Assembly (NCBI GenBank): GCA_036271915.1
Contig: DATAZS010000008.1
Coordinates: 1 to 34,869 of the forward strand
Reading direction: 5' to 3'
DNA: 34,869 nt
DNA from: Polyangia bacterium
GTDB lineage: Bacteria; Myxococcota_A; Polyangia; Fen-1088
In this document: piece after piece, positions 30,106 through 34,869 of the stretch
Layout: each line of letters opens with the position of its first letter
How positions within the stretch are numbered: position 1 is the first letter of the stretch
Program-made: the position numbers and the translations under genes
The notes under the pieces: model-generated
What the model saw: only the letters and a program-made list of their open reading frames with translations
Told to the model about the DNA's origin: nothing
The model's database searches: none

Positions 30106-30678
30106 CTACGGGTCCGCCTCGCGGTCGCCGCCGCTTTCCAGGGCGTCCAGCGCCTGCTCGACGGCGCGCATGATGGCGCCGACTTCGAAGACCGCGGGAT
30201 AGCTGCCGCGGCCAGGAACCCTCGCCCGTCCGACCGATCGGCGCTCGGGCAGTACCTCCCGGGTGGATGCGCGGAACGGGCCCAGTGACGCCGGTTTCGT
30301 GAATGAGAGCTGCCTGTTCGACCCGCGGCTGGTGCGGCCGGAGCTGCGGGTCGACGGGGCCGGGTGCCGCGTGCCGTGGATCCGGGTCGGCGACACCGAG
30401 CATCGCCTCGCCAACCTGCACGTTCACAGCACGGACCTCGAACGACGTCGGAGTGACCGCATGGCGAGGAGCAACCGACGCAAGATTCCTGCAGGCGGTG
30501 GTCGAAGTCCCCCCGGGGCCAGCTCGTTCTGAAGGACCGCGTTGTTGGCCACGCCATCAGTGCTCGGTCGGGCAATGCCGTGACAGCGACCCATTGGCAG
30601 CGCGCGAGTGGCGTATTGAAGTCGCTCGCCGTCGTGGAAGGGTGCAGGCTGACACTCCGATAACGCTGCGGCGTTCAT
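30106..30678 (-). pseudogene. Degenerate ORF remnants downstream of the last cassette
   Basis: ATG 30678 shares 1 nt with the Z1 stop (TGATG) and opens MNAAALSECQPAPFHDGERLQY.... Coding-like codon bias then moves between all three minus-strand frames. The switches fall at C/G runs (ccccgggggg near 30505-30514, cccggg near 30258-30263). The last patch ends AVFEVGAIMRAVEQALDALESGGDREADP, with the stop at 30106. Confidence 0.35.
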
Positions 30679-31220
30679 CAGAGGTCCGGCCCGCAGACGA
30701 CCTGTTGAAAGCCGTTGTCAAGCGTACGGCAGGCGACGACGGCATGCTTGTTGCAAAACGCGTAGGCCTGGCACGCCACCGTCGTCCCAGTCTCCGCGCA
30801 GGTGTCGGGCAAGGGGGCGCACGGAAGGTCCGCGAACGGGTTGTCGACCGCATGACCCTTCAGCTCCATCTGGCAATAGTCCGGATAGATAACGCCGTCG
30901 CAGCCGACGACCGGTTCGAATTCGAGGCAGTCCCCATGCAAGAAACCCTCGTGTGGCCAACAGGCGCCGACCTCCTGGTCACCTTGCCGAGTCTTACCGC
31001 ACATATTGCCATCATAGTGACAAATGAGGCTTTCGCCACGTGAGCCGTAACCACAGTACTTTCCGATGTCCTCGCCGCACTGGGCCCACAAACCCTCCGT
31101 ATAACATTGAGGATTCCCGGGGCAGTCGGCGGCAGGACCGACGGCGCCAGCGGTCTCGTCCGATTCGACCTGGCTGCCGCACGAACACGCAGCTACCGCG
31201 ACAACGACTGCCATGATCAT
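30678..31220 (-). CDS. Cys-rich secreted lipoprotein Z1 with Kazal-like core (180 aa)
   Basis: The signal is MIMAVVVAVAACSC, followed by about 16 further Cys. The Kazal-like block is DCLEFEPVVGCDGVIYPDYCQME (compare the bacterial Kazal pattern CGCDG-x-TY-x-N-x-C). The conserved C-terminus is RTLDNGFQQVVCG. Confidence 0.75.
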   Translation of the reverse strand: MIMAVVVAVAACSCGSQVESDETAGAVGPAADCPGNPQCYTEGLWAQCGEDIGKYCGYGSRGESLICHYDGNMCGKTRQGDQEVGACWPHEGFLHGDCLEFEPVVGCDGVIYPDYCQMELKGHAVDNPFADLPCAPLPDTCAETGTTVACQAYAFCNKHAVVACRTLDNGFQQVVCGPDL

Positions 31221-31766
31221 GACCCGAACACCCGAGCCGCGAATAGTCGTTTTAAAAGTCGAGACCAGTTGAACTTGTTGAGGACGTCAACGACTACGCC
31301 GAGCGGAAAAAACCTCGGCAGCCAGTAGTCGCGCCCGGCGGCCGTTTGGCCGACCTTATGGGGGTTGGGTTCAGAGTTCATAACCAGGCAGATGACCGTA
31401 GTGTCCACCAAGGCCCAGGCCGAATGCGTGCCGACCGTTCGGCCTTCACAGCGGGGGAAGCCCAGCCCTACCACATGGTTGTTGTGTGTGACTCGACTGC
31501 ACGGCATCGTCGAGGCCCCCAGCCCCCATCGCCGGACTTCCACCACATCGTCGAGAGGCCGCCGGGCACGAGCGAGCCGTGCGTCGGGTCACTTGACGGA
31601 GTTACCTTCATGCCCCAGGGGTGGGCGGGATCGTAGGCGTGGAGGACGTCTCGGACTTCGCGCAGTATCGCTCGAGGTCGACCCACGCCGCAGCGTCTTG
31701 CACGACCGACGCGTTGACGCTGCCGCGGATGTGCGTCCAGTCTTGAAGGCAGGCTGCGTGGGGCAT
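31217..31766 (-). pseudogene. Cassette gene X1, disrupted by two 1-nt deletions relative to copy 2
   Basis: It opens MPHAACLQDWTHIRGSVNASVVQDAAAWVDLERYCAKSETSSTP. The frame is lost at acgcc-tac (31636-31643) and again at gggggcc-tcg (31513-31522). The span is 550 nt, and 550+2 is divisible by 3. The C-terminal block is GRDYWLPRFFPLGVVVDVLNKFNWS. Confidence 0.6.
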
Positions 31767-31770
31767 CGCG

Positions 31771-32108
31771 TCACCGAGGACCGGGGTTCAGAGTGACCCA
31801 GATCTGCAGCGTCATCAAGGTCGGCGCCATCGTGACGGTGTTCAGCTGCCACTGGATGTAGCGGCAGAGCCCGCCCGCGAACGCGCGTGCCGGATCTGCT
31901 GCAAGCCGAGGGCGGGCGTGCCCGTGAAGGTCCAGCTGGCGAAGCTCGATAGCGCGCTGAGGTTGACCGGGTCCTTCGACGGGCCGGACTGGATGTTCAG
32001 CGTCGGCTGTAGCGACGAGCTCGCGTGCGGCGGGACAGGCGACGGCCGGCTCAGGTTGCGCGGCTCCTTCGAGGGCCAGCGTACGTTCGCGTGAGGCAGA
32101 ATTGCCAA
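31771..32108 (-). pseudogene. Cassette gene Y1, 1-nt deletion relative to copy 3
   Basis: A TTG start lies 1 nt after the Z2 stop. It reads AILPHANVRWPSKEPRNLSRPSPVPPHASSSLQPTLNIQSGPSKDPVNLSALSSFASWTFTGTPALGLQQIRH. The frame then slips at cacgcgcg-ttc (31880-31890). The tail FAGGLCRYIQWQLNTVTMAPTLMTLQIWVTLNPGPR is in the next frame. The span is 338 nt, and 338+1 is divisible by 3. Confidence 0.55.
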
Positions 32109-32109
32109 C

Positions 32110-33202: not shown

Positions 33203-33814
33203 TCAGGGCTCCTGGCCGCAGACGACCTGTTGGAATCCGTTGGGAAGCGTACGGCAGCTCACGGGAGCGGCATTGTTGCAGTACCAGTATGCTTCGCATT
33301 CAGCGTACGAGCCAGGGAACGGTACGATGCAGCTCTCGGGCAAGTGAGCGCAGCGTGGATGGAACTGGGGCAGCCACGCCTCGCTTTGATGCCCGCTAAC
33401 CTCCATCTGGCAGAGGTTCGGATATATAACACCATCACAGCCAAGCACCGGAGCATTCTGATTGCAGTCGCCGTTGAAAAACCCGCCTGCGCGCCAACAG
33501 ACGCCGACGTCTTGACCGCCCTCATGCCGTCCGCATGCGTCGCCGTCATAGTAGCAATAGAGGTTCTGGCCATTGGCGGCGAAGCCGCAATACGTTCCCG
33601 TGTCGCCGCCGCATGGCGCCCATAAGCTCTGAGTGTAGCAGTCGGATCCCCCGGGACAGTCGCCGGGCGGGGGCGCGGCGTCGCCGGCGTCGCCGGCGTC
33701 GCCGGCGACGCTATCGTAGACGTCGGACTCGCCGTGACCGCCATAGGAACAGGCTGCGACCGACGCGGCCACAAAGAGCAGAGCGCGAACACGCGCGCCA
33801 GGACTGCGCGACAT
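33203..33814 (-). CDS. Cys-rich secreted lipoprotein Z3 with Kazal-like core, subtype 2 (203 aa)
   Basis: ATG 33814 shares 1 nt with the X3 stop (TGATG). The signal is MSRSPGARVRALLFVAASVAACS. The Kazal-like block is GDCNQNAPVLGCDGVIYPNLCQME and the C-terminus is RTLPNGFQQVVCG. The track ORF extends to 34084 as an Arg-rich artefact. Confidence 0.75.
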   Translation of the reverse strand: MSRSPGARVRALLFVAASVAACSYGGHGESDVYDSVAGDAGDAGDAAPPPGDCPGGSDCYTQSLWAPCGGDTGTYCGFAANGQNLYCYYDGDACGRHEGGQDVGVCWRAGGFFNGDCNQNAPVLGCDGVIYPNLCQMEVSGHQSEAWLPQFHPRCAHLPESCIVPFPGSYAECEAYWYCNNAAPVSCRTLPNGFQQVVCGQEP

Positions 33815-34164
33815 CAAAGCGGACTCCAGTTGAACTTGTGGAGGACCTGAACGAGCGCGCCGAAGGTAAAGAACTCTGGCCGCCAATAGCTGCGGCCTTT
33901 CTTCGTTTGAGCTTGGGTGTGCGCATCGCTCTCGGAATTCGCGTCGAGGCACATGATGGTATTGCCGGCGAAGAACTCTTCGTGCTTCGTCGGAGCGAAC
34001 TCGAGCGAGACCGTCGGCCCACCCGCGAAGCCCCGCACGTCCATCATCGGCCAGAGCGCGCGGCAGCGCTCGAGGTCGAGCCACGCCGCGGCGTCTTGGA
34101 CGACGGACGCGTTGATGCTGCCGCGGATGTGCGTCCAGTCCTGAAGGCAGGCTGCGTGGGGCAT
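33814..34164 (-). CDS. Cassette gene X3, the only intact X copy (116 aa)
   Basis: ATG 34164 lies 4 nt after the Y3 stop, and third positions are G/C-rich. The product is MPHAACLQDWTHIRGSINASVVQDAAAWLDLER...GRSYWRPEFFTFGALVQVLHKFNWSPL. It shares both termini with X1 and X2, but the centre is different and shorter. Confidence 0.7.
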   Translation of the reverse strand: MPHAACLQDWTHIRGSINASVVQDAAAWLDLERCRALWPMMDVRGFAGGPTVSLEFAPTKHEEFFAGNTIMCLDANSESDAHTQAQTKKGRSYWRPEFFTFGALVQVLHKFNWSPL

Positions 34165-34168
34165 CGCG

Positions 34169-34532
34169 TCACCAAGGGCCGGGGTTCAGAGTGACGCAGA
34201 TCTGCAGCGTCATCAAGGTCGCCGCCATCGCGACGGGGTTCAGCTGGCAGCGCGTCTTCGGGCGCGGGCCGCGGTCGGACGTACAGGCAGAGCCCGCCCG
34301 CGAACGGCACGTGCCGGATCTGCTGCAGGCCGCGCGCGGGCGTGCTCGCGAAGGTCCAGCTGGCGACGCTCCAGCGGGCGCTGAAGTTGCCCGGGTCCTT
34401 CGACGGGCCGGACGGGATGTTCAGCGTCGGCTGTAGCGACGAGCTCGCCTGCGGCGGGACAGGCGACGGCCCGCTCAGGTCGCGCGGCTCCTTCGAGGGC
34501 CAGCGTACGTTCGCGTAAGGCAGAATCGTCAA
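34169..34532 (-). pseudogene. Cassette gene Y3, frame broken by a 25-nt insertion relative to copy 1
   Basis: A TTG start lies 1 nt after the Z4 stop. The strongly coding frame gives TILPYANVRWPSKEPRDLSGPSPVPPQASSSLQPTLNIPSGPSKDPGNFSARWSVASWTFASTPARGLQQIRHVPFAGGLCLYV. Codon bias then moves to the +1 frame near 34277-34281 (DRGPRPKTRCQLNPVAMAATLMTLQICVTLNPGPW, stop 34169). The span is 364 nt, and 364-1 is divisible by 3. Confidence 0.5.
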
Positions 34533-34533
34533 C

Positions 34534-34869
34534 TCAGGGCTCCTGACCGCAGACGACCTGTTGGAATCCGTTGGGGAGCATACGGCAGCTCACGGGAGCT
34601 GCATTGTTGCAGTACCAGTATGCTTCGCACTCAGCGTACGAGCCAGGGAACGGTACGATGCAGCTGTCGGGCAAGTGCGCGCAGCGTGGATTGGACTGGG
34701 GCAGCCACGCCTCGCTTTGATGTCCGCTCATCTCCATCTGGCAGAGGTTCGGATATATAACGCCATCACAGCCAAGCACTGGAGCAATCTGATTGCAGTC
34801 GCCGTTGAAGAAGCCACCTGCACGCCAACATACGCCCAGGTCTTGGCCGCCCTCGTGTCGTCCGCATGC
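34534..34869 (-). CDS. Cys-rich secreted lipoprotein Z4, subtype 2; 5' end cut by the window edge
   Basis: The frame is open to nt 34869. The product ACGRHEGGQDLGVCWRAGGFFNGDCNQIAPVLGCDGVIYPNLCQMEMSGHQSEAW...NGFQQVVCGQEP is near-identical to Z3. Confidence 0.75.
   Translation of the reverse strand, partial: ACGRHEGGQDLGVCWRAGGFFNGDCNQIAPVLGCDGVIYPNLCQMEMSGHQSEAWLPQSNPRCAHLPDSCIVPFPGSYAECEAYWYCNNAAPVSCRMLPNGFQQVVCGQEP

Follow-up and report, generated by a model that had tools for sequence, protein, structure and literature searches.

The 34,869-nucleotide stretch of DNA analyzed here (positions 1 to 34,869 of contig DATAZS010000008.1, assembly GCA_036271915.1, from a Polyangia bacterium of the Myxococcota_A; hereafter the window) carries at its right end a set of minus-strand direct repeats (30678-34869), which raises the question of what kind of system such an array of small genes might encode. 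A sequence-only reading of the window had seen there a regular head-to-tail cassette of three genes, termed Y, X and Z, in which Z codes for a Cys-rich lipoprotein with a Kazal-like block and X and Y for small proteins of no assignable family. Our analysis indicates that the locus is very probably an array of Z genes interspersed with remnants of a hydrolase gene, instead of a three-gene cassette. On its function we offer a more tentative proposal, namely that these are orphan inhibitor- or immunity-like Z genes standing beside the decaying remnants of their effector genes.

The Z lipoprotein genes

Four Z genes lie in the window, and two further complete ones (Z5 and Z6) lie beyond its right edge in the overlapping contig L001:

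Z1, 30678-31220, minus strand: promoter-distal terminal gene of the array, coding for a Cys-rich lipoprotein of 180 aa; ratio of nonsynonymous to synonymous substitution rates (dN/dS) against Z2 and Z6 of 0.24-0.29
Z2, 32110-32697, minus strand: 195-aa lipoprotein gene with Ser in place of the 15th conserved Cys
Z3, 33203-33814, minus strand: 203-aa lipoprotein gene of clade B
Z4, 34534-34869, minus strand: last 111 codons and stop, cut at the window edge; the full 200-aa gene is at 3172-3777 of L001

The features described in the sequence-only reading, that is, four minus-strand paralogs with a lipobox, about 16 conserved Cys, a Kazal-like block and a terminal NGFQQVVCG, were all recovered. 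The proteins share a common build: a lipobox signal peptide is followed by an acidic linker rich in Gly, Ala and Pro and then by a Cys-rich domain of about 150 residues, which has 16 conserved Cys (invariant or nearly so), contains the block PVxGCDGVIYPxxCQME and ends in NGFQQVVCG. The lipobox, VAAC or VVAC followed by Ser, is present in all of Z1-Z6. At the X1/Z1 junction (31205-31265) the original ATG of Z1, its basic n-region and the TGATG that joins it to the preceding frame are gone, and the protein now starts with MIMAVV. The six sequences fall into two clades, Z1/Z2/Z6 and Z3/Z4/Z5, with an interclade protein identity of about 52-58%. Their pairwise dN/dS is 0.10-0.29 across the 14 computable pairs, one pair being saturated at synonymous sites, and it is only Z that stays open and full-length in every unit. 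We accordingly treat Z, as judged from its patterns of substitution, as a real protein family under purifying selection, and predict it to be an exported, disulfide-rich lipoprotein with a Kazal-like core.

Scans of Z with Pfam, NCBIfam and PADLOC gave no match, and the family is without annotation. A Z profile run exhaustively with HMMER against 1.84 billion representative proteins recovered three more homologs of full length and a fragment of 80 aa (P0006). No relatives of Z were found in 185,579 GTDB species genomes, JGI metagenome contigs, IMG/VR or plasmids, and word-indexed protein searches with Z3, X3 and the 171-aa form of X (X171) returned only the paralogs of the array itself. Z is an extremely rare family.

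X and Y as probable remnants of a hydrolase gene

The stretches between successive Z genes hold X and Y copies in very different states of preservation:

Y copy e, 34169-34532, minus strand: 364 nt, frame broken by a 25-nt insertion; the resulting 162-aa open reading frame (ORF) enters X3 out of frame
X3, 33814-34164, minus strand: open 116-aa ORF, residues 1-65 of the hydrolase (77% identity) joined to its last ~48; stop overlaps the Z3 ATG
Y copy f, 33136-33202, minus strand: first 67 nt left, between Z3 and X2
X2, 32697-33135, minus strand: 171-aa type lacking its first 26 codons, with one nucleotide inserted in a C run; stop and Z2 ATG overlap (TGATG)
Y copy g, 31771-32108, minus strand: 338 nt, one nucleotide deleted from the 339-nt reference frame, hence a premature stop
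X1, 31253-31766, minus strand: 171-aa deletion type with two 1-nt deletions in C/G runs and the stop TGA changed to TTA
X6 (X171), L001 515-1030: intact 171-aa form, the sole intact long X, overlapping the Z6 start
X before Z5, in L001: 56-aa mini-ORF
X before Z4, in L001: last codons only (NWSPL)

The origin of X emerges from an intact 767-aa hydrolase gene at a paralogous locus (described below). X171 aligns through its residues 1-36 with residues 1-36 of the hydrolase (83% identity, E 9e-18) and through its residues 45-171 with residues 648-767 (35% identity, E 4e-17). Residues 1-65 of X3 align with the first 65 of the enzyme (E 5e-34), and the N-terminal part of the 56-aa form with its residues 1-41 (93% identity, E 3e-20 in a tblastn search). 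The deletion junctions differ among units, joining 1-36 to 648-767, 1-65 to ~720-767 and 1-41 to ~753-767, with NWSPL only before Z4. By these alignments X is an internal-deletion derivative of a β-lactamase-fold gene, with at least three different junctions and one unit that has no X. X is without the catalytic SxxK and YxN motifs and retains only W-K-S-G (the K-S-G strand), and it has no match in Pfam, NCBIfam or PADLOC. What had been taken for a small gene of no assignable family is thus assignable and consists of the first 36-65 codons of a 767-aa Pfam Beta-lactamase (PF00144) gene joined to its last 15-127. Nor is X an intact gene in every unit, as had been supposed: X1 and X2 are frameshifted, and X3, the sole open X in the window, is itself frameshifted in a contig from another sample (L003) by a 1-nt deletion at window position 34024. 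The window copies of the 171-aa type are, as far as their reading frames indicate, recent pseudogenes. Where preserved, the X stop and the Z start overlap as TGATG, which suggests coupled expression of X and Z.

Y is a 112-codon frame. A single nucleotide separates its start from each preceding Z stop (TGA G TTG), and 4 nt lie between its end and the X ATG. The copy at L001 1888-2226 (112 aa) is the sole open one, and both full window copies are broken. Its residues 11-109 align with residues 38-138 of the hydrolase (25% identity, pairwise E 4e-6), and dN/dS among its copies is 0.5-1.2, compatible with neutrality; Pfam, NCBIfam and PADLOC scans gave no match. Y looks like an older leftover of the N-terminal part of a gene from the hydrolase's family. 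The intact Y gene of the sequence-only reading is hard to reconcile with an insertion, a deletion and a 67-nt stub in the window together with a near-neutral dN/dS. In a codon-usage test of its strand the sense frame and the wobble-sharing antisense frame were inseparable; because Y aligns to the N-terminal region of the hydrolase, we regard the sense frame as the one that once coded for protein. Genes of 58-102 aa that the JGI gene caller set opposite Y (window 34195-34515 and 31747-32091, plus strand; L001 1902-2210, 3793-3969 and 6217-6393) are most likely shadow ORFs of the former coding region. The 25-nt insertion of Y copy e, CCGCGGCCCGCGCCCGAAGACGCGC, has no counterpart in the other Y copies. 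More generally, pseudogene fragments in high-GC genomes retain ORF-like codon statistics and can be read, or called by a gene caller on either strand, as small genes of unknown family.

These observations bear on the possibility that Y, X and Z are three functional genes in a repeated cassette. One open 112-aa Y and one open 171-aa X do exist beyond the window, and the packing is tight, with 1 nt between the Z stop and the Y TTG, 4 nt between the Y stop and the X ATG, and the X stop lying over the Z ATG. Yet no Y and a single X are open in the window, and the frameshifts largely refute such a cassette; the dN/dS of Y is near 1, X and Y each match portions of a single larger gene, and homologs of Z exist without either. 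We therefore consider the three-gene explanation very unlikely.

The 171-aa form of X is a harder case. The three copies that share its junction (X6, X1 and X2) show a dN/dS of 0.23-0.36, by which measure this form went on evolving under purifying selection once the deletion had occurred, the window frameshifts being recent; it may still function. X171 and Z might thus form a working two-gene module, with X171 as a non-catalytic partner, decoy or regulator and the disrupted copies as recent losses in redundant units. The constraint is comparable to that on the corresponding Z genes (0.24-0.29), as opposed to the 0.5-1.2 obtained for Y by the same method; the intact X6 overlaps the Z6 start, and the frameshifts, which lie in short C/G runs, look recent. 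However, an intact 171-aa X occurs in just one of six units, and the clade-B units with other deletion forms (116 aa, 56 aa or none) still keep Z intact. A fragment of a β-lactamase fold would also be unlikely to fold alone, and gene conversion from functional full-length paralogs could mimic constraint. On balance a working X171-Z module seems to us quite unlikely.

Extent and reproducibility of the array

The direct-repeat structure of the window includes a DNA repeat family (D2) of four copies with spacings of 1432, 1093 and 1331 nt, and the G+C fraction of the array (30678-34869) is 0.64 as against 0.71 for the remaining contig. The proposal that the array runs off the right edge of the window is confirmed by contig L001, which comes from another JGI sample (3300036823). 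It is 100% identical, base for base, to window positions 34869 to 26691 (8179 nt) and adds 3441 nt past the edge, with the remaining part of Z4, then Z5, Z6 and a divergent Z-like C-terminal remnant. In coding direction the order in L001 is the divergent Z-like C-terminal remnant, Z6, a 33-codon Z remnant, Z5, Z4, Z3, Z2 and Z1. The array consequently comprises at least six Z units, of which the window holds the promoter-distal four. These units are unequal in their Y and X content, neither of which is intact in every unit, so that the regular head-to-tail Y-X-Z repeat of the sequence-only reading falls away. The 33-codon Z C-terminal remnant lies between two Y copies (L001 1621-2230) and looks like the footprint of unequal recombination across conserved spacers.

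L003, from sample 3300036781 (a soil metagenome), spans window positions 34782 to 30592 at 99.93% identity. It differs by two substitutions, at 32228 (in Z2) and 31177 (in Z1), and by the 1-nt deletion in X3 noted above, and these differences are population-level variation between samples. No Rfam family and no sigma-70-like promoter was found in window positions 30000-34869; the terminator-like hairpins detected there all lie inside coding sequence and were set aside.

It is accordingly most improbable that the array in its entirety, Z genes too, is duplicated DNA in decay or a repeat-assembly artefact. The lost original start of Z1, the lost conserved Cys of Z2 and the confinement of the array to small contigs in one sample would fit such an origin. 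However, the dN/dS of Z is low (0.10-0.29), and although synonymous divergence between the clades is saturated, the six Z frames have all stayed open over 180-203 codons. Contigs of two samples agree base for base over 8.2 kb, and the reproduction of the array, frameshifts included, in contigs from two other samples excludes an artefact of assembly, which the sequence-only reading had named as one way in which its claim could fail.

Relationship of Z to Kazal domains

The description of Z as Kazal-like proved right for a local core motif of about 31 columns and wrong if taken as family membership. The Pfam scan gave no family for Z1, Z2 and Z3 at E<=1, Kazal models included, and none at E<=0.1 for the homologs P0005, P0007 and P0009. 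The core of Z, PV[LVT]GCDGVIYP[ND]xC, nevertheless parallels the Kazal core motif PVCG[ST]DGxTYxNxC, and with the Kazal inhibitors (PF00050, PF07648; bacterial variants PVCGCDG and PVLGCDG) Z has in common the pattern C-x(4-6)-PV-x-G-C-DG-x-x-Y-x-N-x-C. The PVLGCDG variant, in protein P0021, passes Pfam Kazal_1 at 39 bits. Of 21 Z-profile matches outside the family 17 were scanned in Pfam, all of which contain Kazal domains, and the outside-family matches cover only positions ~111-140 of the Z profile. An hhalign comparison of Z with a Kazal set gave a probability of 96.9% (E 2e-10) over 31 columns, the set being biased in that it was chosen from matches of Z. In this alignment the canonical six-Cys spacing of Kazal domains (disulfides 1-5, 2-4 and 3-6) is not reproduced by Z: the canonical third Cys pairs with Leu (Leu, Val or Thr among Z proteins), a Cys follows two residues later, and the fifth Cys falls in a gap and has no counterpart.

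An AlphaFold2 model of Z from nine sequences has a mean predicted local distance difference test (pLDDT) score of 59.5, rising to about 78 in the block 121-140. There this moderate-confidence model predicts strands at 123-125 and 129-131 and a helix at 134-139, a strand-strand-helix arrangement that would fit the small β-hairpin plus helix fold of Kazal-type domains. A model from five sequences was unusable (pLDDT 36.5). A Foldseek search of the PDB with the Z model gave nothing at E<=1e-3; the top of the list consists of follistatin and small Kazal inhibitors, none of them significant, with a local root-mean-square deviation of 0.6-1.8 Å over 24-29 residues. In a PDB profile search with Z the best matches were designed "Cake" propellers, which we rejected as spurious: they are Cys-less and match only PVxGxDGxIY, repeated up to nine times. 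Among the Z paralogs, variation within the block is greatest just after its first Cys, at the position of the Kazal reactive-site loop. Unlike small Kazal domains, the block in Z is embedded in a domain of ~150 aa with 16 Cys. Judging by these comparisons, Z carries a Kazal-derived core inside a larger new domain and is not a member of the Kazal family.

The hydrolase gene and paralogous loci

The intact hydrolase gene (L006 4726-7026, 767 aa) lies directly upstream of the Z paralog P0005 in contigs L006/L007, from the same two soil metagenomes, and ends about 30 nt ahead of the Z-homologous reading frame. The protein matches Pfam Beta-lactamase (PF00144) at E 3.5e-12 (46.6 bits against a cut-off of 27), this being the sole domain that Pfam finds in it. 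It can be described as an S12-like serine hydrolase and shows the expected motifs in order, S345-L-S-K (SxxK), Y478-S-N (YxN) and K678-E-G (KxG). The in-frame G+C at third codon positions along the gene is 0.6-1.0, mostly above 0.8. A metagenome scan with the 767-aa protein returned nothing. Its N-terminus (MPHAACLQDW...) is not signal-like, and all Z proteins have a lipobox, both by reading of the sequence alone; the two products are hence predicted to differ in compartment, the hydrolase being leaderless and Z exported and lipidated.

Two other loci carry Z homologs. Contig L004 has a remnant made of N- and C-terminal pieces, followed by the Z-like gene P0009 and a further hydrolase-like gene with a different N-terminus. 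In contig L005 (ENA metagenome) the Z homolog P0007 stands alone. Since P0005 follows an intact enzyme gene and P0007 stands by itself, X and Y are not obligate partners of Z, and the constant co-occurrence of Y, X and Z, which the sequence-only reading had put up as a check, is not borne out.

Comparison of the copies shows that the hydrolase N-terminus is 85-97% identical, the intact gene included. The last ~50 residues are 22-91% identical and track the identity of mature Z (34-89%), with a Pearson r of 0.92 over 15 non-independent pairs.

Several side observations concern these loci. In L006 the intact pair has an IS21-type element, with rve and IstB domains, in its vicinity and a PAAR_motif gene 6.7 kb away, these features falling in L006 233-2519 and 14324-14716. 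P0007 is flanked by ORFs that by eye resemble transposase fragments (L005 8315-9916). At all loci Z is lower in GC than its surroundings.

It could be that the hydrolase is irrelevant to Z and that Z is the only gene that counts. Z would then be a variable surface or periplasmic lipoprotein, serving for example adhesion, antigenic diversity or inhibition of foreign proteases, and the hydrolase fragments would be passenger debris of the duplicated segment. No gene but Z has been kept open at full length in all units, P0007 has no hydrolase beside it, and a Kazal-like core would point to classical protease inhibition over a β-lactamase-fold target; the lower G+C of the array relative to the contig is also what would be expected of an accessory island. 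What speaks for a link with the enzyme is that Z follows hydrolase sequence in three separate arrangements (L006/L007, L004 and every array unit), that the X stop overlaps the Z start, and that divergence in Z goes along with divergence in the C-terminus of the hydrolase, the N-terminus of which is constant. We therefore regard an independent role of Z as possible but rather unlikely.

A tentative functional model

The model that we tentatively favor, and that has a little less than an even chance of being correct, starts from an ancestral two-gene module, hydrolase then Z. The split between a leaderless enzyme and an exported lipoprotein, together with the known rows of orphan immunity genes, leads us to read Z as a putative tethered inhibitor of the neighboring SxxK hydrolase. 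Z would be held on the periplasmic side of the membrane, where it would bind and block its cognate hydrolase, perhaps via the hypervariable loop just before the PVxGCDG motif, in the manner in which immunity proteins neutralize periplasm-acting effectors. The array would have grown by tandem duplication and unequal recombination across the conserved stretches formed by Y and the N-terminal part of X. With enzyme genes repeatedly lost and Z genes kept, a stock of orphan inhibitor- or immunity-like genes would have resulted. Two features expected of effector-immunity pairs are found: an enzyme gene lies directly beside the gene for a small protein in L006/L007, with the same order in L004, and a constant N-terminus is combined with a C-terminal region that covaries with the downstream gene, the N-terminus in L004 being different. 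The earlier likening of the locus to polymorphic effector/partner or inhibitor arrays thus retains its general direction, while its gene model, the three-gene cassette, does not.

Several points weigh against this functional proposal. The loss of the start and n-region in Z1 and of a conserved Cys in Z2 implies that these promoter-distal units may be decaying as a whole. Pfam recognizes no Kazal domain in Z at the thresholds given above, and Kazal inhibitors are known to act on S1 and S8 proteases and not on β-lactamase-fold enzymes, a class for which there is no known precedent. For the hydrolase itself Pfam finds no recognized trafficking domain and a PDB sequence search no close solved relative. 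No delivery system is linked to the array, none being present among 17 window ORFs scanned with Pfam or in the precomputed Pfam matches of L001; the sole hint is a PAAR_motif gene (29.9 bits) in L006, 6.7 kb from the intact pair. P0007 has no hydrolase neighbor. The intact hydrolase-Z pair is known from one or two soil metagenomes, and the function of the pairing is predicted. Finally, a dN/dS in the X171-junction copies that is level with that of their Z partners is unlike that of pure junk, and this constraint is the main point that the favored reading leaves unexplained.

A more far-reaching version would have the leaderless enzyme, of the penicillin-binding protein fold, sent into the periplasm of a neighboring cell to act against peptidoglycan and neutralized by the Kazal-derived lipoprotein, with X171 having a role of its own. 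This would amount to a new class of interbacterial weapon and shield, and we hold it to be unlikely; if true, no Kazal-type protein before Z would have served as a bacterial immunity factor or been directed at an SxxK enzyme.

Genomic context in the window

Outside the array the window is ordinary chromosome. Its Pfam-scanned genes include a Bat/VWA operon, a ClC channel, a P450, a CCP_MauG peroxidase and an M61 peptidase; the MoxR-type ATPase of the Bat/VWA operon was assigned by its relatives and not by Pfam. Among species genomes its identity reaches no more than 65%, in Verrucomicrobia MAGs, with Myxococcota MAGs at 54-61%, so that this protein by itself does not establish a placement in the Myxococcota. 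Directly downstream of the array are four co-oriented genes (25096-30020, minus strand):

28968-30020, minus strand: 351-aa lipoprotein-like ORF with no Pfam or NCBIfam match
28165-28701, minus strand: 178-aa ORF with no Pfam, NCBIfam or PADLOC match
27530-28219, minus strand: 230-aa LysM/PG_binding_1 protein with peptidoglycan-binding domains
25096-27537, minus strand: 814-aa ORF with a Gly/Ala-rich hydrophobic C-terminus and no Pfam, NCBIfam or PADLOC match

Elsewhere in the window the CCP_MauG peroxidase gene is flanked by two long ORFs (2629-4293 and 5743-7267, plus strand) that look secreted and are rich in Cys over an N-terminal stretch; they are alike by eye, and neither matches Pfam.

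Comparison with known systems

The closest parallels to the model of orphan inhibitor- or immunity-like Z genes come from contact-dependent antagonism. In V. cholerae orphan immunity arrays have arisen through the loss of effector genes (PMC5361080). The auxiliary clusters of this species' type VI secretion system (T6SS) (PMC5361080) and the acquired interbacterial defense clusters of the Bacteroidales likewise present a row of intact small genes for envelope-targeted proteins. As in such arrays, the upstream enzyme or toxin gene at our locus is lost or fragmentary, with a paralogous locus retaining the intact pair, and homologous stretches between units favor recombination. Unlike them, the present array has no T6SS or other delivery genes adjoining it, and its units are paralogs produced by tandem duplication, whereas orphan immunity arrays are made up of unrelated immunity types gathered by horizontal transfer. 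Toxicity and protection are predictions in the present case.

A second parallel concerns the intact pair. Periplasm-acting effectors combine a leaderless toxin with an envelope-targeted immunity protein, which may be a lipoprotein and may be disulfide-bonded (PMC6899460). In the pairs formed by the VgrG2b C-terminal domain and PA0261 and by Tpe1 and Tpi1 (PMC6899460), the gene for a leaderless enzyme is likewise followed by one for an exported, disulfide-containing and sometimes lipidated protein, and neutralization by direct binding is the expected mechanism there as it would be here. That effector, however, is a metallopeptidase fused to VgrG, whereas the enzyme of the present system is a stand-alone SxxK serine hydrolase with an unassigned N-terminal region of ~300 aa, and the immunity proteins of the PA0261/Tpi1 type have no sequence relationship to Z. 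A text search of the 2012 catalogue of polymorphic toxins (PMC3482391) found mention of neither a β-lactamase/S12-like fold nor a Kazal-like lipoprotein. If the functional proposal is true, the bacterial effector-immunity pairs would gain an enzyme fold and an inhibitor family that are both new, with a Kazal-derived module recruited for bacterial self-protection.

The orphan toxin/immunity modules of rhs and cdiA loci similarly place conserved N-terminal coding fragments before variable C-terminal regions and their cognate downstream genes, and both these modules and the Z array are recombination-shaped. The fragments at our locus differ in keeping the extreme N-terminus and the C-terminus without the catalytic middle, and because of this recombination with a full gene would delete the enzyme, not swap a toxin tip; Rhs/YD and CdiA features are also absent here. 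Should the proposal hold, the array would represent a clean case of repeated effector loss with the immunity gene kept in a tandem array of paralogs. Set beside these systems, Z is a new family within an already known sort of system.

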